Shown here piece by piece: positions 651 to 61,729 of a stretch of DNA of 64,000 nt. The notes below the pieces were generated by a model that saw only the letters and a list, made by a program, of their open reading frames with translations, was not told the DNA's origin and searched no databases. The position numbers and the translations under genes were made by a program. Origin of the DNA: an uncultured Candidatus Saccharibacteria bacterium (GTDB taxonomy: Bacteria > Patescibacteriota > Minisyncoccia > Phycocordibacterales > UBA5272); the NCBI GenBank assembly GCA_964369115.1, contig CAYJED010000003.1, positions 28,458-92,457 on the forward strand, read 5' to 3'. Position 1 is the stretch's first letter, and every line of letters starts with the position of its first letter.

Positions 651-911
651 ATGGATGAGCTTACCCTTTTGGGGGTTCAAAAAATACAAGGAGCATGCGC
701 TTTTAGACTGAACCGAGCAGGAAGGAGTCTGGTGGGCAAGATTTCTCAGATTGAGGAGCTTCTCAAAAATAAAGACCTCCCTCCTCAGCTTCGATCTGAA
801 CTCGAGCTTGCACTTGAAATCATGGAAAAGACTAAGTCCACTCTTCATGTCGCTGCAGAAGATCTTTCTAAGCGAAGAGGTGCCATACCGCTTTTCCTCG
901 TCAGAACTTAA
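651..911 (+). CDS. hypothetical protein
   Basis: 86-aa ORF; overlapping opposite-strand ORF 555..923 judged less likely. Confidence 0.3.
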   Translation: MDELTLLGVQKIQGACAFRLNRAGRSLVGKISQIEELLKNKDLPPQLRSELELALEIMEKTKSTLHVAAEDLSKRRGAIPLFLVRT

Positions 912-973
912 GAGAACGAACAACTTTCGTTCTCTTTTCTTTTTATAATCATAAGGAGTATACTTTAGCTACT

Positions 974-1282
974 ATGGAATCAAGAGAAACATCACCTTAT
1001 CACGGAACAGAAAAAGATATTTATGAAAAATTTGAAGGAGTGCATTCATCTCTTTCAAAAGAACAGCTTGTAGAAAAACAAAACCTTCTCGAAGCTACAC
1101 TGCGTCGACTCTACGGAGATACAGAGGATACAGTTCTTGATCTTGGATCTGAAACATTTGAAGTCTCGGTTGAAAAAGAACATGAAATTGCTCAGACAGA
1201 AAGGTTTCTCGCTATAGTTAAACAGCTAATCAAAAAACAAGAAGAGGGGAATGAGCGCTACACAATAAAAAGAGCCGCTTAA
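974..1282 (+). CDS. hypothetical protein
   Basis: 102-aa ORF preceded by aaggag-like RBS (cataaggagtatac) and followed by hairpin terminator. Confidence 0.45.
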   Translation: MESRETSPYHGTEKDIYEKFEGVHSSLSKEQLVEKQNLLEATLRRLYGDTEDTVLDLGSETFEVSVEKEHEIAQTERFLAIVKQLIKKQEEGNERYTIKRAA

Positions 1283-1287
1283 ATAAA

Positions 1288-1322
1288 ACAAAAAAACACT
1301 TACATTGTAAGTGTTTTTTTGT
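1288..1322. terminator. bidirectional rho-independent terminator
   Basis: acacttacattgtaagtgt hairpin flanked by A-run and T-run between convergent genes. Confidence 0.6.
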
Positions 1323-1366
1323 TTGTGCGTGTAATGTTTTACACGAGAACAGTAAGGTATCGTTAA

Positions 1367-1639
1367 TTACTTAACTGCATCCTTAAGCGCCTTAGCAGCT
1401 GAAAACTTAGGAACTTTTGTCTTAGGAACTTTAACAGTTTCACCTGTCTTTGGGTTACGAGCCTCGCGAGCTTCGCGAGTCTTTACAGTGAACTTTCCGA
1501 GACCAGCAATTGCTACCTCATCACCCTTTGAAAGAGTTTTGATAATGGTAGAAAAAAGTGTATCTACTACTTCTTCTGCTTGTACCTTTGTTGAACCGAG
1601 TACCTGATGTACTGCTTCAACGAGACCTGCTTTGTTCAT
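1367..1639 (-). CDS. hup: DNA-binding protein HU
   Basis: MNKAGLVEAV...GDEVAIAGLGKFTV...RNPKTGE: canonical HU/IHF fold sequence, 90 aa. Confidence 0.9.
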   Translation of the reverse strand: MNKAGLVEAVHQVLGSTKVQAEEVVDTLFSTIIKTLSKGDEVAIAGLGKFTVKTREAREARNPKTGETVKVPKTKVPKFSAAKALKDAVK

Positions 1640-2127
1640 ATACGTGAGTGATTATGTTGCTATGTTTTCCTAGGATCACAGCAACAAAAAATAAATTTAT
1701 TAAATTACTCGCACGTGCCTGTTGCACGGACGGATAAAATAAGTATAGTACGCACAGGTTTTTTAGCAAGTCATATTACAATTATATTTTTATTTGTCAA
1801 AAAATATAATTATCGTATAGGATGTAGCAAGGCACCTTACAGGAGACATCATGTCGCATATTGGAAATCAAGAAAATGGCATAAAAGTATTTCGTATAAG
1901 CATGGAAGATCGAAGATACGCACAAGAATGCAGGGAACTAGTGACACACATTCTTGTGCTAAGAAAAGCGCGTAGGCTTCACGCTCTGCGAAAAGGAAAA
2001 AAGCTTACTCGACAATGGCTTTTGAAAAAAGCATCTATTTCAAACCATTTAGACGCGCTCTTTGCTAGACTCAAAGAACTTAATAAAATAAAAAGGTTTA
2101 AAAGATCTCTTTATTTAACAACAAACT

Positions 2128-12474: not shown

Positions 12475-14502
12475 GTGAATATACCTCACTTTTACAAGGT
12501 ATACTCGTTTGTAATGGGCCATCTATCTCAAGAAGAACAGAAGAAGGGAAACTCTTTAGAAAAAGAGACTTCTTCTCATTTCAAAGAAGAGCTTGATGCA
12601 ATTCTTTCTCTTCATATCACCCCAGAAACAATTGCAACATTTTATGATGAAGCACTTTCAAAGACCATTCTTCTTATTGCAAAAACAGTACAACACTACA
12701 AAGAGGAAGGACTGGGGGCGAATCTTTCTGGTAAAGCACTTGAAGATGCTGCAGCTGCCCACTACGGCATTCCTTCTGTTACAGATCTGCTCACTCGTAT
12801 CGAGGAACGGGAGCGCTATATTCAAGAACTTAAAGATGATCTTATTACAAAAACAGGATACAGTAGCGAGGTCTTTGTGCCACCAACAGCAGATGAAAGA
12901 TTTATCGTAACAGGAAGTGGCAACGGTTTTGAAGAGAAGAGACTCATTCCTCGACTACTTACTCTTTCCTATATTCTTGAGCATGATCTTGGTATTAACA
13001 TGCAAGACGTAGACATTGTACAAGGCACAACAACTGATAACATGATGCGCAAACATCCGTATGTACGACTTAGTGTTCCACTTGAAAGCGGTGATCGCAT
13101 CGTCTACATTTGCGAAGAAGAAGGTAATGCAACTTTTGTTTTTGATAAAGTGAAAATTTTGGAAAAAGTTGGAGACATTCGGCTCCTTGATGTAACTGAT
13201 AAGGTTCGCTACAAAGAACATATTCATGCTGATAGAAGTGTTGGCACCATCGTTCGCCAAAGCCCTACATGGAGGGAGGATGTAACAGAAGCACTAACAG
13301 AATCTTTTGCTGAACCTTTTGTAGAAAAAAGTGGTGTAAAAAAAGAACGAATACCGCAAACAAAAAAAGTATCACCGTCTGATTTTGAAAAATTAATTCC
13401 AAAGAAAAAAGAGGGGTGGGAGAGTGCGAGCTCAATTAATAAACAAGGTTTTGGTAACAGTGAAACAATAGCAAAATTTGCTGAAACATTCCGTATAGAA
13501 CATTCAAAGTGGTTTGAGGAGCAGAAACCGAGCAAAGGCCACCCCGCTACACACTATCACCCGGAATTAGTTACAAAGATTAAAGAACATTTTAAGAAAC
13601 AAAAAGAAAAAAGAGATACGGCTCATGAGAGAAAAGAAGGGTGGGAGAGTGCAAACTCATTAAAGCAACAAGGTTTTGGTAAAAGGGAAACGTTAACAGC
13701 ATTTACTGAAACATTCAGGGCACAGCATCCAGAATGGTTTGAGGAACAGAAGACAGGTGGAGGCAAAGTCGCTGAACACTATCACCCAGAATTGGTTGCG
13801 AAGCTTGTAGAGCGTTTAACTAAAATACCGAAGAAAAAAGAGGGGTGGGAGAGTGCGAGCTCATTAAAAAAGCAAAAAGATTTTGGTGACAGTAGAACAA
13901 TAGCAGCATTTGCTGAAACATTCAGGGTACAGCATCCAGAATGGTTTGAGGAACAGAAGGCAGATAAAGGTGCTGCAGCTGAACACTATCACCCAGAATT
14001 GGTTGCGAAGCTTATAGAGCATTTAACTAAAATACTGAAGAAAAAAGAGGGGTGGGAAAGTGCGAGCTCTATAAAAGAAATTGTTGGTTATAGTTCATAT
14101 TATACAATAAATAAGTTTGCTGAAACATTCAGAGCACAGCATCCAGAATGGTTTGAGGAACAGAAAAATAAAAGCAATTCATCAATACACTATCATCCAG
14201 AGTTAGTTAGAAAGATTGTAGAACATTTTACAAATGCAAAAAAGACACTAGAAAAAAAGCAAGAGAAAAGATGGGGATGGGGGAGCGCGCGATCACTAAT
14301 GAGAGGAGGTATGCTTGGCGGATATAAACAGATAACTAAATTTGCTGAAACATTCAGGGCACAGCATCCAGAATGGTTTGAGGAACAGAAGACAAGTGGA
14401 GGCAAAGTCGCTGAACACTATCACCCAGAATTGGTTACAAAAATTGTTGAACGTTTTGGAAGAAGGGGGATGATTGGAGATGAAAGTGAAAAAGAAAACT
14501 AA
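12475..14502 (+). CDS. hypothetical protein with five tandem ~70-aa repeats
   Basis: Repeat unit KKKEGWESASSL..FG...TIA.FAETFR.QHPEWFEEQK.....EHYHPELV.K..E x5; unique ~300-aa N-terminal region. Confidence 0.6.
   Translation: MNIPHFYKVYSFVMGHLSQEEQKKGNSLEKETSSHFKEELDAILSLHITPETIATFYDEALSKTILLIAKTVQHYKEEGLGANLSGKALEDAAAAHYGIPSVTDLLTRIEERERYIQELKDDLITKTGYSSEVFVPPTADERFIVTGSGNGFEEKRLIPRLLTLSYILEHDLGINMQDVDIVQGTTTDNMMRKHPYVRLSVPLESGDRIVYICEEEGNATFVFDKVKILEKVGDIRLLDVTDKVRYKEHIHADRSVGTIVRQSPTWREDVTEALTESFAEPFVEKSGVKKERIPQTKKVSPSDFEKLIPKKKEGWESASSINKQGFGNSETIAKFAETFRIEHSKWFEEQKPSKGHPATHYHPELVTKIKEHFKKQKEKRDTAHERKEGWESANSLKQQGFGKRETLTAFTETFRAQHPEWFEEQKTGGGKVAEHYHPELVAKLVERLTKIPKKKEGWESASSLKKQKDFGDSRTIAAFAETFRVQHPEWFEEQKADKGAAAEHYHPELVAKLIEHLTKILKKKEGWESASSIKEIVGYSSYYTINKFAETFRAQHPEWFEEQKNKSNSSIHYHPELVRKIVEHFTNAKKTLEKKQEKRWGWGSARSLMRGGMLGGYKQITKFAETFRAQHPEWFEEQKTSGGKVAEHYHPELVTKIVERFGRRGMIGDESEKEN
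13401..14460 (+). repeat. in-frame tandem DNA repeats (~210 bp x5, imperfect) inside CDS 12475..14502
   Basis: Recurring aagaaaaaagaggggtgggagagtgcgagctc... and cagcatccagaatggtttgaggaacagaa... blocks. Confidence 0.7.
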
Positions 14503-28363: not shown

Positions 28364-28551
28364 TTTTTGTTTTACAAGATAGAGTTACGTTTATTGCTGG
28401 ACAGAGATGATCTTCGATCACCTCTGTCCATTTCAATTTTGTTTATTAAAATACTATAAACGACTCCACAAAACCCCATATAGAAGGGGCTTGCATTATT
28501 GACAAAAGTGTGATACAATATCTTTATATAGTTAAAAAACCTTTAAATACC

Positions 28552-43057: not shown

Positions 43058-45910
43058 ATGAAAAAACTCCGTGCCTTGTTTCAAAGCATAATTTTTCTGT
43101 TTGTTTTGTCTTTGTTTTTACCCACTGTTTTTGTTAATGCTCAAAGCCCTGAGGAACCAACAACAGTAACACAAACAAGCTCAAATGACTCTGATTATCA
43201 AGCATATCAAAGCAGAACCGTTGTTCTCTTTAACACTGCAAGAGATGGAATAAACAACTTAATTACAACAACAAGAAACTTACCCATTTCTCAACAAGAG
43301 AAAGATACCGCCATATCAGCATATAACAGTTACCTAGCTGTTATAGGCACAGCCTCAAGAACTTACACATCTCAGATAGGTGGATATATTGGATCTTCAA
43401 CACTACCACCACAAGGACAAAGACTAGCTCTTGATGAAGCCTTGCGAATTCTTGCGCAGGGAAAAGGTTCTCTGCCACAAAATACTAATGCGCTTAATAT
43501 TTATAACTCATTAGAGTCAGCCCTCCAGACTGCAAAAACCTCAGCAGCTCAGTTTGCTGCAGGATCAAGCGGTGGGGACGCTCTTACAAATGCAGCAAAC
43601 GACCAAATAGCAGGCGCTGCTTCTGCTGCCAAAAAAAACATAACGAAAGGTATCTGTTCTATTGGTGTTTTGTCTGACATGAACCTTGGTGCTTGTGTGT
43701 CTGAATTCTTTTCTTGGGTAATTAAAAATACCTTAATGGAGCTTGCTGGGTGGTTTTTTTGGGCTTCAGCAAATCTTTTTAATTTTGCAATGAGTGTTGC
43801 TGTTCTTGATTTTAAGTCGTGGGCACCAGACGCTCTTTATCCGCTTTGGATTGTTATACGACAAATTGTATCTCTACTCATTGTTTTTGCGGGTCTTTAT
43901 CTTGGGTTTATGTACATCTTAGGAAGGGAAGATAAGTTTGAAAAGTATATTCCTTGGGTGGTAATTTTTGCTCTTTTTGTAAACTTCTCTTACCCTCTTG
44001 TAAGAACCGCAGTAGATATTTCAAATATTGTTTCACTTAAACTGTACTCGGTTGCTGTTGGACCGGAAGCTTTAAGTGGAGGTCTCACAGGGTTACAAAC
44101 TCCTGGCGGAAGAATACTAAAACACTTAGGTCTACAAGACTTGGCAGCAAGCGCAACAGCAGAAGAAAGCGACAAAAATAATCTGAAGGGTATTAATACT
44201 ATTTCTGGGGCGCTTTTGGTTGTTGTGTTTTTAGGATACGCCGCATACATCTTCTTTGTTGCAACAGGAATTATTGTTATGAGAACTTTAGCTTTAGTTT
44301 TTCTCATCATCGCCTCACCAATTCTTTTTATAGATAGTGTGATACCAATGCTTGGTGACCAGGCGATGAGGCTACGTAAAATATTTTTTGAACAACTTGC
44401 AGTTGCTCCCATTTTTACCATCATGCTAGCGATTACCCTTAACTTTCTTTCTATTTTTAGTACATCAACCATTACCAGCAATCCTTCTGGTGGAGACGCA
44501 ACAATCACAACCATCTTTACTATGGTGATCATGCTTGGGTTGCTACACCTAACACTTACGGTAACAAAAGAGGTTGCTGGAAAAGTGGGTAATTTTGCAG
44601 GAGAAGCTCTTGGTAAGGTGGGGGGATTTGCAGGAGGTGTTCCTCTTGGTGCAGCTACAGGTGGTGTCGGACTTCTCGCACGTAAAAGTATTGGGGGGCT
44701 TGCAGTGAAAGCTCGCGACAGTGCATGGGTACAAAAAAATCAAGATACTGCTGGAGGCAGGTTTGCACACAGTATAAGCAACTCTCTTGCAAAGAGCTCT
44801 TTTGATTTAAGAAATACTTCTGTTGCGCAGAGAGGGGCATCTAAGCTCGGTATTAATATGGGAATGGGGTCAAAGATGAACTATGAGGATATGCAAAAGG
44901 CTAAACTTCAAAAAGCTCGTGAGGTTGGTGAAAGAATAAAATTAAGACATGAACGAGACATCATCAAAGATGGAAAACTTGTTGCGAGAGCAGGAGATCT
45001 TAACGAAGAAATGGTTGAAGCTAAGCGACGTTATGACGAAAGAAACGGTGGAGCCCTTTTCTTAACCAAGGGTGACAAACAAGCTTTTGCTGCTCAATAT
45101 GCCGACACAACAGGTGGTGAGCTCGTAGCAAAATATAAAAGTACACCAAAAGGAGAGAGGGGTCTTTTTTCTGATCAGCTTAAAAAAGAATTTGAGGAAC
45201 TTAAGAAGACCGATCCTCAACTTAAAAGTAACAGAGGGCAGGCGTTTGCTCGTGCTGTGTATGATATAGAAAAAGAGGAAACAGCAACAAAGAAGGCTCT
45301 TGATGAGGAATTTGAGAAAGTGTCAGGAGAAATAAATGACATGACAGCAGATAAAAAACAAAATTATTATGCACGTCAAAGTGAAGAAATAAAAAAGCTT
45401 TTAAGGGTAAATAACATTTACACACCCTCTTCCACATCAATACCAACCGCAGCACAAACTGTCGCTCAAAATAAGCCAACCCCGCCTGCCGCAGGACCCC
45501 CTACAGCAACAACGGCTCCTGTCGCGGCAATAAACACCCCACCATCAACAGCAGCACAAGACTGGTCGCAGTATGATACTCCAACGTACCAAAGAAAACA
45601 AAAAGAAGGGGGTGCACCGACTCAACAAACAATATCAAGCAGCGCAGATGAATCTGCTCCACAAGGAGGAAAACCAGGATTTCTTAAAACCGCTGAAGAA
45701 AAAATCCAAGAGCGTGAAGAAAACAAACAAGTAGCAACTTCTGGATCAGCTGAATTTGGCGATTTCGCAAAGAGAAGAGAAGCGGCTGCCCAAGCTGTGC
45801 AAAAAAACATGGCAAATAATGCTGCTGAAGCTTCTGCTCAGCAAATCGCAAATGACGCCATTAAAAATGCTCAGGAAGACTCCAAAAAAACCCAAGAAAC
45901 TGCTTCTTAA
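43058..45910 (+). CDS. large polytopic membrane protein, VirB6/TrbL-like candidate
   Basis: Signal peptide, then 6+ hydrophobic helices between aa ~200-520, Pro/Ala-rich and coiled-coil C-terminal tail; 950 aa. Confidence 0.5.
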   Translation: MKKLRALFQSIIFLFVLSLFLPTVFVNAQSPEEPTTVTQTSSNDSDYQAYQSRTVVLFNTARDGINNLITTTRNLPISQQEKDTAISAYNSYLAVIGTASRTYTSQIGGYIGSSTLPPQGQRLALDEALRILAQGKGSLPQNTNALNIYNSLESALQTAKTSAAQFAAGSSGGDALTNAANDQIAGAASAAKKNITKGICSIGVLSDMNLGACVSEFFSWVIKNTLMELAGWFFWASANLFNFAMSVAVLDFKSWAPDALYPLWIVIRQIVSLLIVFAGLYLGFMYILGREDKFEKYIPWVVIFALFVNFSYPLVRTAVDISNIVSLKLYSVAVGPEALSGGLTGLQTPGGRILKHLGLQDLAASATAEESDKNNLKGINTISGALLVVVFLGYAAYIFFVATGIIVMRTLALVFLIIASPILFIDSVIPMLGDQAMRLRKIFFEQLAVAPIFTIMLAITLNFLSIFSTSTITSNPSGGDATITTIFTMVIMLGLLHLTLTVTKEVAGKVGNFAGEALGKVGGFAGGVPLGAATGGVGLLARKSIGGLAVKARDSAWVQKNQDTAGGRFAHSISNSLAKSSFDLRNTSVAQRGASKLGINMGMGSKMNYEDMQKAKLQKAREVGERIKLRHERDIIKDGKLVARAGDLNEEMVEAKRRYDERNGGALFLTKGDKQAFAAQYADTTGGELVAKYKSTPKGERGLFSDQLKKEFEELKKTDPQLKSNRGQAFARAVYDIEKEETATKKALDEEFEKVSGEINDMTADKKQNYYARQSEEIKKLLRVNNIYTPSSTSIPTAAQTVAQNKPTPPAAGPPTATTAPVAAINTPPSTAAQDWSQYDTPTYQRKQKEGGAPTQQTISSSADESAPQGGKPGFLKTAEEKIQEREENKQVATSGSAEFGDFAKRREAAAQAVQKNMANNAAEASAQQIANDAIKNAQEDSKKTQETAS

Positions 45911-45943
45911 GAAAGCGTCCACCGCTTATACTATAATCATTAC

Positions 45944-46693
45944 ATGTATCCTTCATATATCGCAGAAAATAGAGGGGAGTTATTCGATCAGGTATCTGAC
46001 TACGTACAGGGGTTAATTCTTGATGGCGAATTAAATCAAACAACTCTTGTTCTTGCTGAAAAATATAAAATACCTGTTGGAAAATATGTTCCACTTTCTG
46101 AACTTATTTCTTTTATTTTAATCGGGGCGTTACAGCCCGACGATGTCCTTCAGGCACTTGAAGATATGGTGGGGGTAGACAATGCAACCGCTCTTCATGT
46201 TGCGGAAGACTTAGAGCATTCAATCTTAGAAAAAGCTCGTATGAGCTTGTTTAAAAAGGGGGATCCAACCAAAGTTGCAAAACTTGAATTTCAAGGAACA
46301 CGATCAAAGGAAGAACTTCGAAAAGAAATTCTCGATACAACAAAACGTGAGTCAGCTCTTGTGAAAAATCCTGTTGCTGCTAGCGCCCAAGGTATCAAAA
46401 AAACATCCGTCTTAAACCCTGGATCTCGTTCACAACTAATGGAACAGCTACAAATTCTAAGTACAATACCAGATGATGAAGAGATAATAGCAAGACTTGC
46501 TCATATTCAGGAGCAAATTAATAGTATTAAAAAACAAGAAGAAGATAATAGTCTTAAGTCAAATATTGCTCTTAAAAGCTTTATGTTCGGAGAAAAAGGG
46601 CAGGAGGTAGCTGAAACAAAAACTCGCCCCGCAACATATAGTATTGCCCCAAAAGAGTATAATGTTGACCCTTATAAAGAAATAGTGGGGTAA
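45944..46693 (+). CDS. hypothetical protein (T4SS cluster)
   Basis: 249 aa, soluble. Confidence 0.45.
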   Translation: MYPSYIAENRGELFDQVSDYVQGLILDGELNQTTLVLAEKYKIPVGKYVPLSELISFILIGALQPDDVLQALEDMVGVDNATALHVAEDLEHSILEKARMSLFKKGDPTKVAKLEFQGTRSKEELRKEILDTTKRESALVKNPVAASAQGIKKTSVLNPGSRSQLMEQLQILSTIPDDEEIIARLAHIQEQINSIKKQEEDNSLKSNIALKSFMFGEKGQEVAETKTRPATYSIAPKEYNVDPYKEIVG

Positions 46694-46734: not shown

Positions 46735-47172
46735 ATGCAGTTTAGAGTACCTCAATTTATTGATATTGAAGATAAAGTTTTTGGCCCTTTTACCTTAAAG
46801 CAATTTGGGTATATTGTGGGTGCGGGGGGTATTTCTTTTCTTATCTGGACACTTATTCCTATTAAATTTATTGCTATTTTAATTATAGTTCCTATTGCAG
46901 GCCTTTTTCTTGCTCTTGCTTTTGTTAAGTACAACAACAGATCTTTTGGTGAAATTCTTGAAAGCGCTTTTACTTACTACACAAATACTCGTATCTATAC
47001 ATGGAAACAACCGGAACTAAAAAAAGACGAGTCTTCTGTTGATCAAATTGTAGCAAATACACAAAAAGATATTATTATCGCAAAAACAAATAGTAATAAA
47101 ATTCACGACCTTGCTCTTGGTCTTGATGTTTTTGATAGGTCAACAGAGATCAATAAAGAAGACGATAAATAG
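46735..47172 (+). CDS. small two-TM membrane protein, VirB3-like candidate
   Basis: Two adjacent hydrophobic helices (GAGGISFLIWTLIPIKFIAILIIVPIAGLFLALAFV), positioned just upstream of the VirB4-like gene. Confidence 0.4.
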   Translation: MQFRVPQFIDIEDKVFGPFTLKQFGYIVGAGGISFLIWTLIPIKFIAILIIVPIAGLFLALAFVKYNNRSFGEILESAFTYYTNTRIYTWKQPELKKDESSVDQIVANTQKDIIIAKTNSNKIHDLALGLDVFDRSTEINKEDDK

Positions 47173-47237: not shown

Positions 47238-47873
47238 ATGGCAACAAAAGGAGTAGCAACACAGGAGTTTGTACCGATTGAGAGAGTTCGTGACGGTATT
47301 ATCATTTTAAAGACAGGGGAACTTCGAACTATTCTTATTACAAACTCTCTCAATCTTGGACTTAAAAGTGAAGATGAGCAACAGGCTATTCTTTCACAGT
47401 TCCAAAACTTTCTTAACTCTCTTGATTTTCCTGTTGAGTTTTTTATTCAATCCAGACGCCTTAACATAGGACCATATATGGACATGCTTCAGGAAAGAAG
47501 TAAGCAGGTGAAAGAAGACCTTCTTAAAATTCAAATTCACGAATACATGGGATTCATTAAGCGCTTTACCGATGAGAGCAACATTATGACAAAGCACTTC
47601 TTTATAACCATTCCTTACTTTAATCAGAAAAAAGAGGAAATTAACACTTCTTCACTTCTCTCTTTTAGTAGTGACGGTAAAAGTAGAACAAAAGATGACA
47701 GCTTTGAAACCGCCCGCATACAACTTGAACAGCGAACAGCGACTGTTATGCAAGGAATCTCTCGTTTTGGGTTGCGTGCAGAACGACTTGGAACAGAAGA
47801 GGTGATTGAACTTTTTTATAAACTTTTTAATCCGAGCGAGGCTAATCGTGACACCCCAAAGGTTGGACAATAA
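47238..47873 (+). CDS. VirB4 N-terminal-domain-like protein (possibly a split-off or frameshifted 5' part of virB4)
   Basis: EFVPIERVRDGIIILKTGELRTILITNSLNLGLKSEDEQQAILSQFQNFLNSLDFPVEFFIQS resembles the N-termini of Gram-positive-type VirB4 ATPases; ends 11 nt before the next ORF, in a different frame. Confidence 0.45.
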   Translation: MATKGVATQEFVPIERVRDGIIILKTGELRTILITNSLNLGLKSEDEQQAILSQFQNFLNSLDFPVEFFIQSRRLNIGPYMDMLQERSKQVKEDLLKIQIHEYMGFIKRFTDESNIMTKHFFITIPYFNQKKEEINTSSLLSFSSDGKSRTKDDSFETARIQLEQRTATVMQGISRFGLRAERLGTEEVIELFYKLFNPSEANRDTPKVGQ

Positions 47874-47883
47874 CTATACACAT

Positions 47884-49719
47884 ATGGGACTTTTTGACTT
47901 TCTCAATAAAAATAAACCGGTAGAAACTACGACACCAAGCTCTCCTATTAGCCCTGTACTTCCAGAGCAAGTATATAAGATTGCAGAGATGCAACTAAAG
48001 GACATTATTGCCCCGAGTGCTCTTGAAATTCAACCTAAAGGAATTAATCTTGGGACAACTGTGGTTCGTTCTTTCTTTGTTATCTCTTATCCAAGATATC
48101 TTACCGACAACTGGCTTAGCCCCATTGTTAACCTTGATAAGGTGTTTGATGTTTCAATTCATGTAACACCACTTAACACAGGTGAAGTAATGAAAACCTT
48201 TCAACGTAAAGTTGCTGAGGTGCAAAGTCAAATCATGGTAAGAGAAGAGAAGGGGTTGGTGCGAGATCCTTCACTTGATGTTGCTTATCAAGATCTTGAA
48301 GATCTTCGTGATGGACTTACCCAGGCTCAAGAGAAAATGTTTGAGGTTGGTCTTTACATTACTATCTACGGGGAAACATCTGAGGAGGTTGATAAAACTG
48401 AAAATGAAATTAAAAATATTCTTGAAAGTAAGCTTGTTTATGTAAAGCCAGCACTGTTTCAGCAAGATGCGGGTTTTATCTCAACACTTCCTGTGGGAAC
48501 AGACTTGCTTCAGATTAAAAATAAAATTAATACCTCTCCACTTTCTTCATTTTTCCCGTTCGTTTCATTTGACCTTTCGTCTGATAAAGGAATTCTTTAT
48601 GGACTTAACCGTCACAATGGAAGCCTTATTCTTTTTGATCGTTTTTCTCTTGAAAACTACAATTCAATTGTTTTTGCAAAATCAGGTTCTGGTAAAAGTT
48701 ATATTACTAAGCTTGAAATTCTTCGTACTCTTATGTTTGATACGGAGGTTATTATTATTGACCCAGAACGAGAATATGAATTCCTTGCTGAATCGGTAGG
48801 GGGACGTTACTTCGATATCTCTCTTGTAAGTGATCACCACATTAATCCTTTCGATCTTCCTCACCCAACAGAAGACGAGTCACCATCTGAAGTGCTTCGA
48901 GCAAACATTGTTAATCTCGTTGGACTTTTCCGTGTAATGCTTGGTGGTCTTACTCCAGAGGAAGACGCCATTATTGACCAGGCAATTACTGAAACATATG
49001 CACTTAAAGATATTAACGGGGATACTGACTTTACACAGTTAGAGCCTCCACTTCTTTCTGATTTTGAAACTGTTCTTGCGGGAATTGACGGGTCAGAGAG
49101 CATTTTGCAACGTCTCTCAAAATACACAAAAGGAACATGGGCTGGTTTTATTAACCAACCTTCAAATGTTGATATCAATAAAAAACTTGTTTGTTTCTCT
49201 ATTCGTGACATGGAAGACGAACTTAAGCCTGTTGCAATGTATATTGTTACCCACTTTATCTGGAACGCTGTTCGTAAAAACCTAAAAAAGAGACTTCTTG
49301 TTGTTGATGAGGCGTGGATTATGATGAAAAATGATGACACAGCATCATTCTTGTTTGGTCTTGCAAAACGTGGACGTAAATACTACCTCGGACTTGCGAC
49401 TATTACCCAAGATGTTGGGGACTTCCTTAAGTCACCATACGGTCTCCCGATTATTACAAACTCTTCAATTCAAATACTTCTTAAACAGTCTCCGACGTCG
49501 ATTGACCTTGTTCAAAAAACATTTAATCTTACCAACGAAGAGAAGTTCTTACTTCTTGAATCAGGGGTAGGGGAAGGGATATTTTTTGCAGGACTAAAGC
49601 ATGTTGCTATCAAAGTAGTTGCTTCGTATACAGAAGATCAAATTATTACAAGTGATCCGTCTCAGCTTCTAAAAATTGAAGAAATGAAAAAAGAAGTTGC
49701 TGAATCAAAAGCCGTATGA
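47884..49719 (+). CDS. virB4: type IV secretion system ATPase VirB4/TrbE/TraC-like
   Basis: Conserved N-region IIAPSALEI...GTTVVRSFFVISYPRYL..WLSPI, Walker A AKSGSGKSY, Walker B LLVVDEAWIMM (DEAW hallmark); contains protospacer 49077..49108. Confidence 0.8.
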   Translation: MGLFDFLNKNKPVETTTPSSPISPVLPEQVYKIAEMQLKDIIAPSALEIQPKGINLGTTVVRSFFVISYPRYLTDNWLSPIVNLDKVFDVSIHVTPLNTGEVMKTFQRKVAEVQSQIMVREEKGLVRDPSLDVAYQDLEDLRDGLTQAQEKMFEVGLYITIYGETSEEVDKTENEIKNILESKLVYVKPALFQQDAGFISTLPVGTDLLQIKNKINTSPLSSFFPFVSFDLSSDKGILYGLNRHNGSLILFDRFSLENYNSIVFAKSGSGKSYITKLEILRTLMFDTEVIIIDPEREYEFLAESVGGRYFDISLVSDHHINPFDLPHPTEDESPSEVLRANIVNLVGLFRVMLGGLTPEEDAIIDQAITETYALKDINGDTDFTQLEPPLLSDFETVLAGIDGSESILQRLSKYTKGTWAGFINQPSNVDINKKLVCFSIRDMEDELKPVAMYIVTHFIWNAVRKNLKKRLLVVDEAWIMMKNDDTASFLFGLAKRGRKYYLGLATITQDVGDFLKSPYGLPIITNSSIQILLKQSPTSIDLVQKTFNLTNEEKFLLLESGVGEGIFFAGLKHVAIKVVASYTEDQIITSDPSQLLKIEEMKKEVAESKAV

Positions 49720-50678
49720 TGTTTATACGTTATTTCTTTTTCTTCTGTTTTTTTATTCAAGCAACAGCAGTATCTGCTGAAGACTTGGCAAGCATTCGTC
49801 TCAACCCAGAAAACCCCGCACCTTACAGTAGTGTGGAAGTAAAACTTGAGAGCTTTTATTTTGATGTCAATGTTGCTCGTATTACATGGGAGGTAAATGG
49901 TCGTGTCATCTTAACTGGTGTAGGGGAAAAGAAAATCTCTATAATAACTGGTGCAATAGGTCAGCCAACAACCGTTAAAGTTACAGCGGAAGCAAGTGAC
50001 GGATCAAAGGTAGAACAGGTTATACCAATACGTCCGTCTTCAATAACCCTTTTGTACGAAGCACCAAAAAGTTACATTCCTCTTCTTTATAAAGGAAGAT
50101 CTCTTCCTGCTGACGGGGCAGAGGTTAAAGTAACAGCATTTCCTCAAATAAGTGAAAAAGGTGCCCCTGTGTCACCTTCAAATGTTTCTTACAGTTGGTA
50201 TATTAATGATGAATTTTATGAAGATATTTCTGGGTATGGTAAACAATCTGCTTCAATAAAAATGGATTACCTGAGTCCTTATACTGAAGTAAGAGTTCTT
50301 GCAAGAACAACATCAGGAACTGTTGCAGAAAAATCAATTGATATTTATCATCATGCAGTCACACCTCTTGTTTACCTTTATGACCCAGTGCTTGGCACAC
50401 GATTTTCCAAGCTTTTAGAGCGTCGTTTTGAAACAACGGAAGACTTCACTCTCATGCTTGAACCTTTATATGTGACACACAAAGAATCAAAAGCACCAAC
50501 CTACACATGGACATTAAATGGTTCACCTTCTACTCCACTCGATGGAAGATCTCTCTCATTCCAACCAAAAAAGAACTCCTACGGATCACAGCGTCTACAA
50601 ATTTCAGTGATTGGACCAAATGCTTATCTTGAAGAAGGGGAGGTTGCTCTTGATCTTGTTTTTGATACAAGAAGGTAA
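49716..50678 (+). CDS. secreted beta-rich protein, hypothetical (T4SS cluster)
   Basis: Signal peptide MMFIRYFFFFCFFIQATAVSA; 320 aa. Confidence 0.5.
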   Translation: MMFIRYFFFFCFFIQATAVSAEDLASIRLNPENPAPYSSVEVKLESFYFDVNVARITWEVNGRVILTGVGEKKISIITGAIGQPTTVKVTAEASDGSKVEQVIPIRPSSITLLYEAPKSYIPLLYKGRSLPADGAEVKVTAFPQISEKGAPVSPSNVSYSWYINDEFYEDISGYGKQSASIKMDYLSPYTEVRVLARTTSGTVAEKSIDIYHHAVTPLVYLYDPVLGTRFSKLLERRFETTEDFTLMLEPLYVTHKESKAPTYTWTLNGSPSTPLDGRSLSFQPKKNSYGSQRLQISVIGPNAYLEEGEVALDLVFDTRR

Positions 50679-50706: not shown

Positions 50707-51519
50707 ATGGCAACACCTTATACACCTCTCGAACCCTCCTCAATAACAGCTCTTTCTAGTGTAGGAGCTTCAACAAATGTAAGTGACGCTTCTTTTGCAG
50801 GGATAACTACGTTTGTTTACTCACTCTTTTTTATAGGAATAATTGGTGCAGCTTTTTATAGATACACTCTTGCTGGAATGTTTAGAATGGAAGCTTCTGA
50901 ATCAGGTATTCGTAAGTCTAATGAAATATTTAAAAGGGTTACTCTTGGATTACTTGGAGTATTTTCTCTTTTTATTCTTTTGTTTACTGTTAACAAAGGA
51001 TTAGTTACAGGAGATGTTCCTCTTGGAAATTTAAAATCAGGTGGACAAACTTCAGGTGGACAAGTTGTACAGCCTCCTTCTCCTGCTGTAGGGGCTCCGG
51101 GGACGGGGGACGGGAGAGCAGAAGCAATACAGCAAGATGCGGCCGTTCGCCAGCAATTAACATCTCAAGGAATAACCGTAAATAAACCAGTCTGCCCAAA
51201 TCCATCTGCCACAGATTGCACCACAATTGGAGGTGTTCACCCTGATACGATTTCAATGCTTCTTCGGTTACGTACAACATGTAATACGCCTTACACGGTA
51301 ACAGGAGGTACAGAAAAAGGTCATGTTGAGAACGGAACACATGGACCGGGACGACCAGCTGTTGACCTTAGTTTTGGAAATCAAACCCTTAATACATGTA
51401 TTACTACTTCAGAAAAAGCCACACCTAACCCAATCCCTGGATATTGTGTTAATGCTTATAAAAAGCTTGGTTATATTTTTTGCCAAACATCAAAACCACA
51501 TTGGCACGTATATAAGTAA
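50707..51519 (+). CDS. two-TM pilin-like N-terminal module fused to M15-family zinc peptidase (cell-wall hydrolase) domain
   Basis: N-terminal 127 aa identical to paralog 52893..53882; C-terminus has ENGTHGPGRPAVDL (SxHxxGxAxD-like) and HWH, consistent with the VanY/M15 fold. Confidence 0.55.
   Translation: MATPYTPLEPSSITALSSVGASTNVSDASFAGITTFVYSLFFIGIIGAAFYRYTLAGMFRMEASESGIRKSNEIFKRVTLGLLGVFSLFILLFTVNKGLVTGDVPLGNLKSGGQTSGGQVVQPPSPAVGAPGTGDGRAEAIQQDAAVRQQLTSQGITVNKPVCPNPSATDCTTIGGVHPDTISMLLRLRTTCNTPYTVTGGTEKGHVENGTHGPGRPAVDLSFGNQTLNTCITTSEKATPNPIPGYCVNAYKKLGYIFCQTSKPHWHVYK
50727..51108 (+). repeat. 382-bp direct repeat, copy 1 (identical to 52907..53288)
   Basis: Identical by eye across the whole length; encodes the shared N-terminal module. 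Confidence 0.85.
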
Positions 51520-51563
51520 GACGTTCACAGGAACTTATTTTACTAAGCTGATATACTTCTTTT

Positions 51564-52889
51564 ATGGAAAGCTCTGGAAATAAAAGACTCCTTATTGCTG
51601 TTGGTCTCGTCCTCCTTTTGGTTATTGTTGCGCTTGTTTGGTATTTCGTTTATGCAAAACCACTTGTTGCCCCATCACTTGGAGGAACAAATGACCCTAT
51701 TGCAGAAAGACAATTTCGTCCACGTTTTCAATTCCTTAATTGGGGAGAAAATGCTCAGTCTCGCGAAATAAGTAACGAAACAAAAGATCCACGAAAAGAA
51801 GTTCTCACCCAGATTTGGGACAAGCCAGCTTCTGGTCATAGATTTTTTAATGCTTCTATTTTGAAAGAAGTCACAGCAACTACAACCCAAGGGACATCCA
51901 CCACTGTTATTGAGGTAAAAAGAACTGTACGCGCAACCTCTACTATTCTTCTTTTTATCGACAAAACAACCGGATACATTTACCGTTATTCATTTGAAAC
52001 AGGAAAAACTTCACAAATATCAAACACCCTTATCCCGGGGGTTTCTGATGCTTACTTTTTTAATAATGGAGAAAGGGTTATTATTCGTTACCCAGAAAAA
52101 GAAAAAAATACTGTTTCAGGTATTATTGCAACATTACCTAATGTTACAGAAAACGGGGAAGCTCTTCCTCTTATAGATGCTCAATATCTTACCCAAGAAG
52201 TAATGTCTGTTGCTGTAAACAAAAAAGGAGATTTGGCTGCTTATGTTGTTGCAACAACTAACGGAAGTTCTCTTTATCTTATTTCAGGTAAAACAGTACC
52301 TCGACTTGTTACATCGTCTCCATTTAGGGAATTTACTGTTTCATTTGGTGGTAATTCTCTTTATCTCACATCAAAACCATCTGCTTATGTGGAAGGGTCT
52401 ACATTTTTAATACGACCATCAGGAAATACTCAAGGTGGAGTATTTGAAGTTGTAACGGATGGAAAAACGGGACTTATAACAAACCCTGGCGAAATTGCTC
52501 ACCTCAATAGTATGTGGGGTAAAAATGGCCTTGTTACCTTTTTATCAAACAATGGACAAACTAAAACTCTTTCCATTCAAACAATTGCATCTAAGTGTGT
52601 TTGGGGTACAAATAATTTTCTTGTTTGTGCTGTTCCTCGTCTTATTTTAAGAGGTAAAGAAGGTCTTCCGGACGACTGGTTCCAAGGAAGAACAACTTTT
52701 GAGGACGATCTGGTTACGGTTGATCCACTTTCTGGTGAACATTTTTCTCTGTATTCATTTAAAAATGAGGATGATATTTTTGATATTGAATCTCTTTCAA
52801 TTGATGATGAAAATGGTGTAGTTAGTTTTGTAGAAAAAGAAGAAGAAACGTTATGGCTTCTTAATACAAATAACTTTCAGCAAGAATAG
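51564..52889 (+). CDS. membrane-anchored beta-rich protein, hypothetical
   Basis: N-terminal TM (LLIAVGLVLLLVIVALVWYFVYA); 441 aa. Confidence 0.5.
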   Translation: MESSGNKRLLIAVGLVLLLVIVALVWYFVYAKPLVAPSLGGTNDPIAERQFRPRFQFLNWGENAQSREISNETKDPRKEVLTQIWDKPASGHRFFNASILKEVTATTTQGTSTTVIEVKRTVRATSTILLFIDKTTGYIYRYSFETGKTSQISNTLIPGVSDAYFFNNGERVIIRYPEKEKNTVSGIIATLPNVTENGEALPLIDAQYLTQEVMSVAVNKKGDLAAYVVATTNGSSLYLISGKTVPRLVTSSPFREFTVSFGGNSLYLTSKPSAYVEGSTFLIRPSGNTQGGVFEVVTDGKTGLITNPGEIAHLNSMWGKNGLVTFLSNNGQTKTLSIQTIASKCVWGTNNFLVCAVPRLILRGKEGLPDDWFQGRTTFEDDLVTVDPLSGEHFSLYSFKNEDDIFDIESLSIDDENGVVSFVEKEEETLWLLNTNNFQQE

Positions 52890-52892
52890 TGT

Positions 52893-53882
52893 ATGGAGTA
52901 CAAAGCTCTCGAACCCTCCTCAATAACAGCTCTTTCTAGTGTAGGAGCTTCAACAAATGTAAGTGACGCTTCTTTTGCAGGGATAACTACGTTTGTTTAC
53001 TCACTCTTTTTTATAGGAATAATTGGTGCAGCTTTTTATAGATACACTCTTGCTGGAATGTTTAGAATGGAAGCTTCTGAATCAGGTATTCGTAAGTCTA
53101 ATGAAATATTTAAAAGGGTTACTCTTGGATTACTTGGAGTATTTTCTCTTTTTATTCTTTTGTTTACTGTTAACAAAGGATTAGTTACAGGAGATGTTCC
53201 TCTTGGAAATTTAAAATCAGGTGGACAAACTTCAGGTGGACAAGTTGTACAGCCTCCTTCTCCTGCTGTAGGGGCTCCGGGGACGGGGAGTGGTTCAAGC
53301 GGAGGTTCTGCATCTTGTGTAACTGTTGCATCAGTAAACCAAAATCTTCAGTCCGGTAATATTTGTAGACAAGCTTCTTGTACCGTACTTAGTGGATGTA
53401 ATTACAGACAATATGAAGATGTTATTAAGAAAGAAACTGGTAATGATGCTAAGCTTACAAAAATGATTATTGTCACCATGTGTAAAGAATCTCGAGCACA
53501 AGTAAATGAGGAAAATAGAAATCCAAACGGAACTTATGATTGCGGTTTGATGCAAATCAACCAAACAACTCCGTGCACAGCCCAGATTCTTGATGTAACA
53601 CAAAATATTAAACAAGGAGTAGCTCTTATGAAAGAAAAAATAAGGTACGCTAGTCGTGTTTATTCAAACATCCCTTCAGAAGCAAATGTGTTTGCGTCTT
53701 ATAACTGTTGTGCAAATGGAGATAATCCAGCAAGTGAAAGTAGGGACTGCAACACTTCCTCAGGATTTTCTCAAAGTATCCCTAAGTGGGCATGTCCAAT
53801 AAACCCTGGGTCAGGACAATTTAACATGTGTGCAGTAAGTAATTATGCATGTGAATTAACAGCCTGTTTAAACCAATTATAA
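52893..53882 (+). CDS. two-TM pilin-like N-terminal module fused to SLT-family lytic transglycosylase domain (VirB1-like)
   Basis: MCKESRAQV...NPNGTYDCGLMQIN matches the ES-GLMQ motif of family 1 lytic transglycosylases; Cys-rich C-terminus; 329 aa. Confidence 0.7.
   Translation: MEYKALEPSSITALSSVGASTNVSDASFAGITTFVYSLFFIGIIGAAFYRYTLAGMFRMEASESGIRKSNEIFKRVTLGLLGVFSLFILLFTVNKGLVTGDVPLGNLKSGGQTSGGQVVQPPSPAVGAPGTGSGSSGGSASCVTVASVNQNLQSGNICRQASCTVLSGCNYRQYEDVIKKETGNDAKLTKMIIVTMCKESRAQVNEENRNPNGTYDCGLMQINQTTPCTAQILDVTQNIKQGVALMKEKIRYASRVYSNIPSEANVFASYNCCANGDNPASESRDCNTSSGFSQSIPKWACPINPGSGQFNMCAVSNYACELTACLNQL
52907..53288 (+). repeat. 382-bp direct repeat, copy 2
   Basis: See copy 1. Confidence 0.85.
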
Positions 53883-56587: not shown

Positions 56588-56865
56588 AAAAATAATAAAA
56601 ACTACACAATATTTGTGTAGTTTTTATTATTTAAGACCAGCTGTTTATAAGTATGTTGATAACATAATAATAACATTATAATAAATGTTGAGTTATTAAA
56701 TATACTTTTATAAAAACAGTAAGTAGTGCACAATTAAACTTTTTTCTTTCGCTATCTTTAAGTACTTTTAATTTCTAAAAACAGATATAAAATAAGACTT
56801 TTTTAACATCTCCACACCATCCACATAGCTATACTTAATATTATATTTTATATATACTAATAACT
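56588..56865. promoter_or_regulatory. candidate oriC (dnaA-dnaN intergenic, AT-rich with DnaA-box-like 9-mers)
   Basis: 278-bp AT-rich spacer; near-consensus TTATNCACA-like elements (ccatccaca, ttataaaca, tgttgataa), plus ttatacaca at 55239-55247 just upstream of dnaA. Confidence 0.5.
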
Positions 56866-57959: not shown

Positions 57960-58184
57960 ATGGACAATAATCTTTTCTTAAAATATACAAAAGCTATAAC
58001 AAAAAGAGAAGATGATAAAAGTATAATTATCGCTCTTATAAAAGAATCTTCAGGAATTATTTTAGAAAAAGAAGATTTTATTTTAGAAGGTAAAAAAATT
58101 ACTTTCACTACAACTTCTACAAAGAAAATGTTTTTAAAAAAAATATTTAAACAATTAGAAGAAAAAGGGTATATGTGTAAATAA
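57960..58184 (+). CDS. small hypothetical protein
   Basis: 74-aa ORF abutting dnaN, K/I-rich; weak support. Confidence 0.3.
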   Translation: MDNNLFLKYTKAITKREDDKSIIIALIKESSGIILEKEDFILEGKKITFTTTSTKKMFLKKIFKQLEEKGYMCK

Positions 58185-58220
58185 AAACTTCCACAAGATT
58201 ATTGTGGAAGTTTTTATTTT
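58183..58220. terminator. bidirectional hairpin terminator
   Basis: aaaaacttccacaa-gattatt-gtggaagttttt. Confidence 0.6.
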
Positions 58221-61664: not shown

Positions 61665-61676
61665 TTGTAGAGTAAA

Positions 61677-61716
61677 AGTAAAGGAGGGGCACCCGTAGGG
61701 TGCCCCTCCTTTACTT
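61677..61716. terminator. bidirectional GC-rich hairpin terminator
   Basis: gtaaaggaggggcaccc-gtag-ggtgcccctcctttac. Confidence 0.6.
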
Positions 61717-61729
61717 TATATAGAACTAC

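Follow-up and report, generated by a model that had tools for sequence, protein, structure and literature searches.

In a 64-kb stretch of DNA from a Paceibacteria-type patescibacterium with a chromosomal type IV secretion system (T4SS) locus (64,000 nucleotides, hereafter the window), two neighboring genes, termed A (50707–51519, plus strand, 270 aa) and B (52893–53882, plus strand, 329 aa), carry an identical 383-bp direct repeat in front of two different domains predicted to cleave the cell wall. Gene A comprises a T4SS_pilin-like module, a linker and a carboxy-terminal LAS/M15A-like putative zinc peptidase domain (residues ~136–270; window ~51112–51516), and gene B the same module and a linker followed by a GH23/SLT lysozyme-like domain and a Cys-rich tail; a third gene, the middle gene, separates the two. 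Based on the evidence outlined below we consider it likely that A and B are ancient tandem paralogues of the T4SS locus, each combining a pilin hairpin, a linker and a wall-cleaving domain, whose shared module has been homogenized by gene conversion.

Pairwise alignment combined with exact extension delineated the repeat to positions 50726–51108 (copy 1, plus strand, in gene A) and 52906–53288 (copy 2, plus strand, in gene B), each encoding the pilin-like module with its two-helix hairpin and Gly/Pro/Ser linker, with 100% identity over 383 bp and no gaps. The preliminary description of this DNA had reported identical 382-bp blocks at 50727–51108 and 52907–53288; the identity holds, as the alignment gave no divergence between the two regions, and the length has to be extended by one base. 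The repeat covers 127 whole codons, in frame, inside both open reading frames (ORFs), in line with the common 127-residue amino-terminal module that had been proposed. It starts at the second base of codon 7 in gene A and of codon 5 in gene B, so that neither gene has its start codon, ribosome-binding region or first 4–6 codons within the repeat. The edges are sharp, with the flanking 30–300 bp on each side exhibiting 20–28% ungapped identity, corresponding to the random level. Self-BLAST of the 64-kb window revealed neither a third copy of the block nor any other long exact direct repeat, and chance cannot produce an exact repeat of 383 bp in 64 kb. The presence of an identical repeat in two predicted wall-hydrolase genes is thus confirmed. 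A mobile element or an RNA element was considered as the nature of the repeat and rejected, the repeat being wholly intragenic and in frame in both genes. Its right edge (51085–51108 and 53265–53288) is formed by the G-rich tract GGGGCTCCGGGGACGGGG, the G+C content of the genome being 39%, and the repeat stops exactly past this tract.

Related assemblies allowed a comparison of the two copies between strains. An exact-sequence look-up found neither of the window proteins A and B on record, although a 99%-identical A is. Contigs encoding the latter, from two Joint Genome Institute (JGI) metagenomes (L001 and L002; 39.6 and 70.3 kb), cover the entire locus including the two repeat copies, at a locus identity to the window of 98.2% for L002 and 94.6% for L001, the poorer contig. 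In this sister strain, a single site out of 383 separates the A copy from the B copy, and the same six substitutions (five at third and one at a second codon position) distinguish both of its copies from both window copies, so that 6 of the 7 variable sites are common to both copies. The sister-strain A allele is also present on a third JGI contig (L003). The window B allele occurs on an NCBI contig (L004) with 99.87% identity to the window, its B copy being 100% identical to copy 2. Derived changes shared by both copies of one strain require copying between the copies after the strains had split. Compared with L002/L003, the module differs at 6 of 383 sites and the adjacent A-domain plus middle gene at 7 of 1737, a ~3.5-fold elevation (Fisher p = 0.018) that is too weak for conclusions.

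These data also bear on whether the repeat could be an assembly artefact, either one real copy that was duplicated or two diverged copies that were collapsed into one consensus. A 383-bp repeat exceeds the typical short-read length, and many short-read metagenome contigs indeed end within the module. In one sample, two contigs, one leading into the peptidase and the other into the SLT domain, each overlap by 123 nt at 100% identity with a third contig that terminates within the module. Such a shared overlap is the signature of a real repeat collapsed in the assembly graph, and the contig breaks themselves therefore point to a real repeat. Moreover, the structure recurs in three other assemblies, which derive from the same or sister strains, with both copies covered by the two long JGI contigs and a one-nucleotide A/B difference retained in the sister strain. 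All seven variable sites are located within 100 nt of a repeat edge, positions 99–331 being invariant. This proximity ties them to the unique flanks through reads or k-mers and speaks against a collapse into one consensus; the six strain-specific sites close to unique flanks are nonetheless found in both copies. Finally, eight further species carry the pair on single contigs at 85–100% identity. Taken together, we assign an artefactual origin only a very slight probability.

Scanning one genome per GTDB species yielded 18 loci from metagenome-assembled genomes whose labels read Paceibacterota, Nomurabacteria or 'Saccharibacteria'. The gene order is shared by every locus of sufficient length. 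For a comparison set of ten syntenic genomes (the window, the L001/L002 strain and eight further species-level genomes), codon alignments gave 85–100% identity between the module DNA of A and B within the same genome, with six genomes reaching at least 99.7% and self-BLAST in agreement, whereas between genomes the module DNA is only 50–76% identical. Between the same genomes, the DnaA protein exhibits 90–94% and the VirB4 ATPase protein 84–91% identity. The individual self-BLAST values for A against B were 100% over 310 bp (L006) and over 400 bp (L019), 99.7% over 327 bp (L005), 98.5% over 324 bp (L011), 97.8% over 321 bp (L015), 95% over 298 bp (L007) and 88% over 273 bp (L008, with 85–88% the lowest module identity of the set). 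Where the copies diverge, the differences lie mostly in the first ~25 codons, while the hairpin core stays identical. The first 4–6 codons are gene-specific across genomes, following the pattern M..SYT.LEP for A-type genes and, in most genomes, MEYK.LEP for B-type genes, and outside the tract, orthology and synteny hold for the catalytic domains as well as for the middle gene. Since the paired architecture is orthologous across genomes whose modules differ by 24–50%, the duplication is old and the module has been homogenized repeatedly. The module hence evolves fast between species but stays identical or nearly identical within each genome, a pattern of long-lasting, domain-limited gene conversion, that is, concerted evolution between A and B.

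Taken alone, the perfect identity in the window would also be compatible with a recent strain-specific duplication or domain transfer without any ongoing process. This option, which had been raised initially alongside gene conversion, is excluded by the recurrence of the paired architecture and of near-identity in genomes with such different modules, by the orthologous gene-specific first codons and catalytic domains, and by the derived changes that the sister strain shares between its copies; we attribute practically no probability to it. Of the three mechanisms initially put forward (recent duplication, gene conversion and cassette-like shuffling), gene conversion is the one borne out by these shared changes together with the contrast of within-genome and between-genome identities.

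Direct repeats of this size can furthermore mediate pop-out or amplification, raising the question of a programmed switch, in which the segment of A-domain and middle gene would be reversibly deleted or amplified as a form of phase variation. A 2.3-kb contig (L009) that has one and the same 98-nt piece of the module at either end would fit such a switch, yet this structure is also the expected assembler output for a two-copy repeat. The deletion product, a module directly fused to the SLT domain, occurs in 0 of ~35 loci, and no recombinase gene is present in or beside the cluster, the single integrase-family gene of the window lying ~19 kb upstream. A switching function therefore appears highly improbable.

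The module itself consists of two hydrophobic helices connected by a short basic loop, RMEASESGIRKSNEIFKR. An AlphaFold2 model places the helices at residues 30–61 and 65–95 with a predicted local distance difference test score (pLDDT) above 90 and shows residues 108–133 as a disordered Gly/Pro/Ser linker, consistent with the two hydrophobic helices and Gly/Pro linker of the preliminary description. Neither A, B nor the isolated module matched Pfam PF18895 or TrbC, even at E ≤ 10, and NCBIfam gave no match. A profile built from 22 modules retrieved only 223 proteins at E ≤ 1e-3 from 1.84 billion representative proteins. Among the 142 top matches scanned, 55 contained PF18895 (T4SS_pilin), 3 TrbC/VirB2, 10 SLT and 1 VanY, and all ten of the short matches examined (112–145 aa) passed the PF18895 gathering score. 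Aligning the module with ten stand-alone PF18895 pilins by hhalign resulted in a probability of 99.1% (E 1.9e-18), with the alignment comprising the Y..L(E/P) motif of the mature pilin amino terminus, both helices and the LGLL...LIL.TINPDLL motif. Conversely, a hidden Markov model (HMM) derived from the ten stand-alone pilins matched only A and B among the window ORFs, with E ~4e-10, and detected no stand-alone pilin gene among the ORFs of the 64 kb. By inspection, A and B lack a signal peptide and begin at the motif aligning with the mature pilin amino terminus (Y..LEP), whereas the stand-alone pilins of the comparison set carry hydrophobic leaders. At the level of sequence profiles, the module is thus assigned as a divergent VirB2-like T4SS_pilin domain without signal peptide, raising the pilin/VirB2-like topology suggested earlier to profile-level homology with Pfam T4SS_pilin.

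Related architectures were observed in proteins of other metagenomes. P0146 and P0162 (555 and 544 aa) contain an amino-terminal extension of ~250 residues, a pilin-like module (~259–370) and the same LAS-type domain, ending in HWHV, an architecture indicating that the pilin–peptidase fusion is wider than the A/B lineage. P0147 (473 aa) contains two letter-identical tandem T4SS_pilin-like segments of ~110 residues, a Ser/Thr/Gly-rich tail and, by eye, carboxy-terminal SLT-like motifs; it represents either a further case of identical pilin modules or an assembly duplication.

For the carboxy-terminal domain of gene A, 57 full-length orthologues were available. Across 25 orthologues, the invariant positions comprise H206, H212, D220, H267 and E203, with H265 conserved to at least 90%, which yields the zinc-ligand signature His-x(3-7)-Asp ... 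His-x-His; several cysteines are likewise conserved. The domain gave no Pfam or NCBIfam match, including the M15 models, and phmmer as well as profile hmmsearch against PDB sequences returned no hits. As the full-length model led Foldseek to matches polluted by helical hairpins of histidine kinases, the domain was remodelled alone, resulting in a pLDDT of 92 and a predicted template modeling score (pTM) of 0.86. The best match of this model in the PDB was the zinc DD-peptidase of Streptomyces albus (1lbu; M15A), with a best E-value of only 0.06, and LAS enzymes made up 7 of the top 15 matches; in BFVD, the top matches were 'Peptidase M15A, C-terminal' and other M15 proteins with probabilities up to 0.97 and E ~0.01. 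We thus call the domain a LAS/M15A-like putative zinc peptidase by fold and motif, not a demonstrated M15 member: of the M15-type assignment made at the outset, the motif is conserved and the best fold matches are M15A/LAS peptidases at modest significance, whereas the M15 HMMs do not match.

This domain is exchanged between strains. An NCBI locus (L023) and a JGI locus (L024) share 94% DNA identity from VirB4 to the linker, with the Ig-like gene and the module in between; the value then falls to the random level exactly at the end of the linker and returns to 93% past the stop codon of A. The two catalytic domains in between are 32% identical in protein sequence and adopt the same predicted fold, one being of the HFH and the other of the HWH type. 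At the A position of L015, the same module is fused to an unrelated domain with a Cys...His signature, whose sole match is a weak papain fold (E 0.09) and which we regard as putatively papain-like. The catalytic domain of A is therefore exchanged as a cassette, with the module as the constant amino-terminal carrier and the peptidase as the replaceable carboxy-terminal unit, so that the cassette-like shuffling once proposed applies to this domain but not to the repeat. The GH23 domain of B is kept wherever B is present.

Gene B scored 23.4 bits with Pfam SLT against a cut-off of 21.3 (residues 178–275; window ~53424–53717, plus strand), and its orthologues reach E-values down to 8e-9. Within 26 sequences, E199, S200, G218, L219, M220 and Y270 are invariant and Q221 and N271 at least 90% conserved, comprising the catalytic Glu-Ser, GLMQ and (A/S)YN motifs. 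The family profile of B furthermore matches g-type lysozymes (9e-10), MltC, EmtA and EtgA, the transglycosylase of a type III secretion system. Together, these data corroborate the previously noted SLT domain and assign B, as judged from its sequence, to the GH23 lysozyme-like enzymes, with either lytic transglycosylase or hydrolytic lysozyme chemistry predicted.

Both genes belong to a chromosomal cluster with VirB4, VirB3/PrgI and VirB6 homologues adjoining dnaA, in the order VirB6-like gene, a 249-aa gene, PrgI, VirB4-N, VirB4-ATPase, Ig-like gene, A, middle gene, B, yidC (minus strand), rnpA (minus strand) and dnaA. The VirB6/TrbL-like polytopic membrane protein (43058–45910, plus strand) matches Pfam TrbL weakly (E 0.0034) and is syntenic in relatives, and PrgI (VirB3-like; 46735–47172, plus strand) is recognized by its Pfam model at E 1.7e-11. 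The VirB4 ATPase (47238–49719, plus strand; Pfam P-loop_TraG, E 8e-25) is split into two plus-strand ORFs, a TraC-like N-domain (47238–47873; 211 aa) and the P-loop ATPase (47806/47884–49719; ~611–637 aa), a split found with the same gene calls in the sister strains and conserved in all related loci. Directly upstream of gene A, the syntenic Ig-like protein (49716–50678, plus strand) has a hydrophobic amino-terminal leader, suggesting likely export, and sub-threshold Pfam Ig-like matches (BiPBP_C, PKD_6 and Ig_3). The middle gene (51564–52889, plus strand; 441 aa) encodes an amino-terminal transmembrane helix followed by a domain of unknown fold, and its stop codon lies 3 nt ahead of the start of gene B. 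It is present between A and B in all relatives, syntenic and with 40–53% amino acid identity, and gave no family match and no match among PDB sequences. The 249-aa gene and the upstream 329- and 598-aa genes likewise yielded no informative family match. Compared with L001/L002, the VirB6-like gene is ~83% and the 249-aa gene ~90% identical, while the rest of the locus is at 98–99.7%, delineating a hypervariable patch at 43058–46693 just upstream of PrgI. In L008, an extra gene is inserted between A and the middle gene (903–1652, minus strand, of that locus), encoding a membrane protein, also of 249 aa, with histidine-box motifs resembling fatty-acid hydroxylases or desaturases.

Based on these features we propose that each of the two proteins would consist of a VirB2-like T4SS_pilin hairpin without signal peptide, a flexible linker of 25–40 residues and an extracytoplasmic peptidoglycan-cleaving domain. 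The DNA of the pilin domain is continually homogenized by intrachromosomal gene conversion over the ~2.2-kb gap, presumably through RecA-type recombination between the direct repeats; the conversion tract is flanked by the gene-specific first codons to its left and by the non-homologous linkers or catalytic domains to its right. As in VirB2, the hairpin may be inserted with both ends outside and the basic loop inside, in which case the enzymes would be held outside the membrane on tethers of ~30 residues. The shared hairpin could dock both enzymes to the same T4SS partner or assembly, where A would cut stems or cross-links and B glycan strands, jointly opening the peptidoglycan at one spot, be it in the wall of the bacterium itself or in that of a host. 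Identity of the modules would be tolerated or favored because both proteins must fit the same fast-evolving partner, and conversion would let both carriers follow this partner or surface together. More speculatively, variability confined to the peptidase would fit an adaptation to the wall chemotypes of hosts.

Several points weigh against this interpretation. In the window assembly, the identity of the copies rests on consensus sequence. The Pfam T4SS_pilin model gives no direct match to the module, the ten pilins used for hhalign had themselves been picked by the module profile, and transmembrane composition can inflate profile scores. The M15/LAS assignment comes without significant support from sequence models, with fold E-values of only 0.009–0.06, and we infer the enzyme activities, the membrane topology, the association with the T4SS and the target wall. 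The module identity, too, could have arisen neutrally, as a side effect of conversion between direct repeats that lie close together. Homogenization would then be real but functionally neutral, reflecting frequent recombination of direct repeats ~2.2 kb apart, with the hairpin serving as a generic anchor and its pilin resemblance being vestigial. Such neutrality would be in agreement with the spacing of A and B, as identity is lowest at the largest distance (88% at 3.09 kb in L008, where the extra gene intervenes, and 97.8% at 2.67 kb in L015, against 95–100% at ~2.2 kb), and with the L010 lineage, which lives without B. On the other hand, the tract survived deep divergence, with the intervening A-domain and middle gene undeleted, although recombination between direct repeats should delete them, indicating that selection maintains the arrangement. 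The module has also retained conserved pilin motifs, and the 64 kb around the T4SS contain no other pilin domain. We therefore regard neutral homogenization as a possibility to be taken seriously, though a doubtful one, and favor a functional link of the shared module to the T4SS.

A more far-reaching version, which we put forward only as a rather unlikely possibility, would make A and B pilus subunits of the T4SS, whose identical hairpins co-polymerize into a filament or channel stalk displaying both enzymes on flexible tethers as a 'cell-wall-drilling' pilus aimed at a host. If true, conversion would preserve an identical packing core, allowing the two subunits to share one lattice, while the exposed module would diverge from species to species and the peptidase 'warhead' would be exchanged between strains to match the peptidoglycan chemotype of the host.

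The closest functional analogues are the membrane-anchored two-domain peptidoglycan hydrolases that conjugative T4SS of Gram-positive bacteria encode beside VirB4/VirB3/VirB6 homologues, namely CwlT of ICEBs1, PrgK of pCF10 and TraG of pIP501. A and B resemble them in their predicted membrane anchoring, in the T4SS gene setting and in the combination of predicted glycan-cleaving and peptide-cleaving activities. They differ in that the activities are distributed over two proteins instead of one polypeptide, in the peptidase, which is LAS/M15A-like and not NlpC/P60 or CHAP (with L015 as a possible exception), and in the anchor, a pilin-type hairpin in place of a single transmembrane helix. The suggestion in the preliminary description that CwlT-type activities are split here between two proteins is thus a fair functional analogy, without extending to family membership, as the domains reside on separate polypeptides. 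An architectural likeness, and only that, exists to polymorphic toxins (contact-dependent growth inhibition (CDI) and Rhs systems), in which a constant amino-terminal module is followed by a carboxy-terminal catalytic domain replaced cleanly at the linker between close strains; here, in contrast to such toxins, the warheads are predicted cell-wall hydrolases and an immunity gene next to them was not identified.

Among known systems, the MPF-FATA-like chromosomal T4SS of Patescibacteria with its peptidase/lysozyme pair comes closest, and the closest family of the module is T4SS_pilin. In many Patescibacteria, a phylogenetically distinct, relaxase-less T4SS is encoded near dnaA (PMC12102498). 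Epibiotic growth of Ca. Southlakia epibionticum requires the T4SS genes (PMC10633639). Among these essential genes, SEML1_0007 with a Hedgehog/DD-peptidase fold and SEML1_0006 with a lysozyme-like domain are located downstream of virB4 (PMC10633639, PMC12102498), accompanied by a separate array of small PF18895 pilin genes (PMC10633639 supplement). This locus shares with ours the VirB6-like protein, PrgI, VirB4 and an Ig/PEGA-like exported protein, the position beside dnaA/dnaN/rnpA, and the DD-peptidase-fold and lysozyme-like enzymes following virB4. In contrast, its hydrolases are large (1113 and 643 aa) with no pilin domain listed in the supplement, whereas those described here are small, each fused to a pilin-like domain, with identical pilin domains and no stand-alone pilin nearby. 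The VirB2-like pilins of patescibacterial arrays have a mean amino acid identity of 25% and a maximum of 54% (PMC12102498). Array pilins are at most 54% identical, stand-alone and equipped with signal peptides, whereas the copies described here are 100% identical in DNA, enzyme-fused, devoid of a signal peptide and missed by the Pfam model.

As the closest evolutionary precedent we consider mtrA-1/mtrA-2 of methanogens, operon paralogues with long-lasting, domain-limited gene conversion (PMC4632066). Both cases comprise an old duplication in a conserved operon in which one domain is homogenized and the other differs by domain shuffling. Here, however, the homogenized part is a fast-evolving surface or membrane module and not a conserved catalytic domain, the DNA identity reaches 100% with sharp edges, and the non-homogenized part is swapped between strains. 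Further precedents of gene conversion are tufA/tufB and the 5' segments of babA/babB in H. pylori. Full-text literature searches, including PF18895 and pilin–transglycosylase combinations in the Candidate Phyla Radiation (CPR), found, within a limited literature coverage, no account of pilin–hydrolase fusions or of identical pilin modules, and both the fusion and its concerted evolution are apparently undescribed.

The locus bears on the function of the essential, relaxase-less patescibacterial T4SS. Throughout a large lineage, no pilin-type domains occur near the apparatus other than those joined to two domains predicted to be complementary peptidoglycan hydrolases, and these fusions, the kept identity and the exchanged peptidase point to wall breaching, possibly of a host, as a core task of the T4SS. 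For evolutionary genetics, the locus is an exceptionally clear example, among prokaryotes, of gene conversion that has lasted long and is confined to one domain, here a fast-evolving module, and it offers experimental handles in the form of two small predicted enzymes, a defined linker and natural domain swaps. A practical warning arises for assembly work, where the repeat systematically fragments short-read assemblies at this locus.

Elsewhere in the window, two arrays of ~36-nt repeats with a period of 71–72 nt (25066–25668 and 27805–28385) are mutually inverted, with ~90% identity over 398 bp. Between them lie the genes for a 409-aa protein containing a helix-turn-helix domain of the IS605 OrfB/TnpB type (ORF 25774–27003) and a 230-aa Cas1 fragment (ORF 27080–27772; Pfam Cas_Cas1, E 6e-24), and a tyrosine recombinase gene (23841–24854) adjoins the arrays. 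This region looks like a very compact CRISPR (clustered regularly interspaced short palindromic repeats) locus with a TnpB/Cas12-like effector. Within the ORF at 12475–14502 (675 aa), a 207-bp unit is tandemly repeated in 2.6 copies with 82% matches (13628–14165), with related copies extending over 13395–14457. Finally, near-perfect palindromes of 41–45 nt lie just past gene ends at 22604–22647, 24805–24847, 56590–56632, 58179–58219 and 61675–61717, one of them 3 nt past the stop codon of dnaA, and probably represent terminator hairpins.

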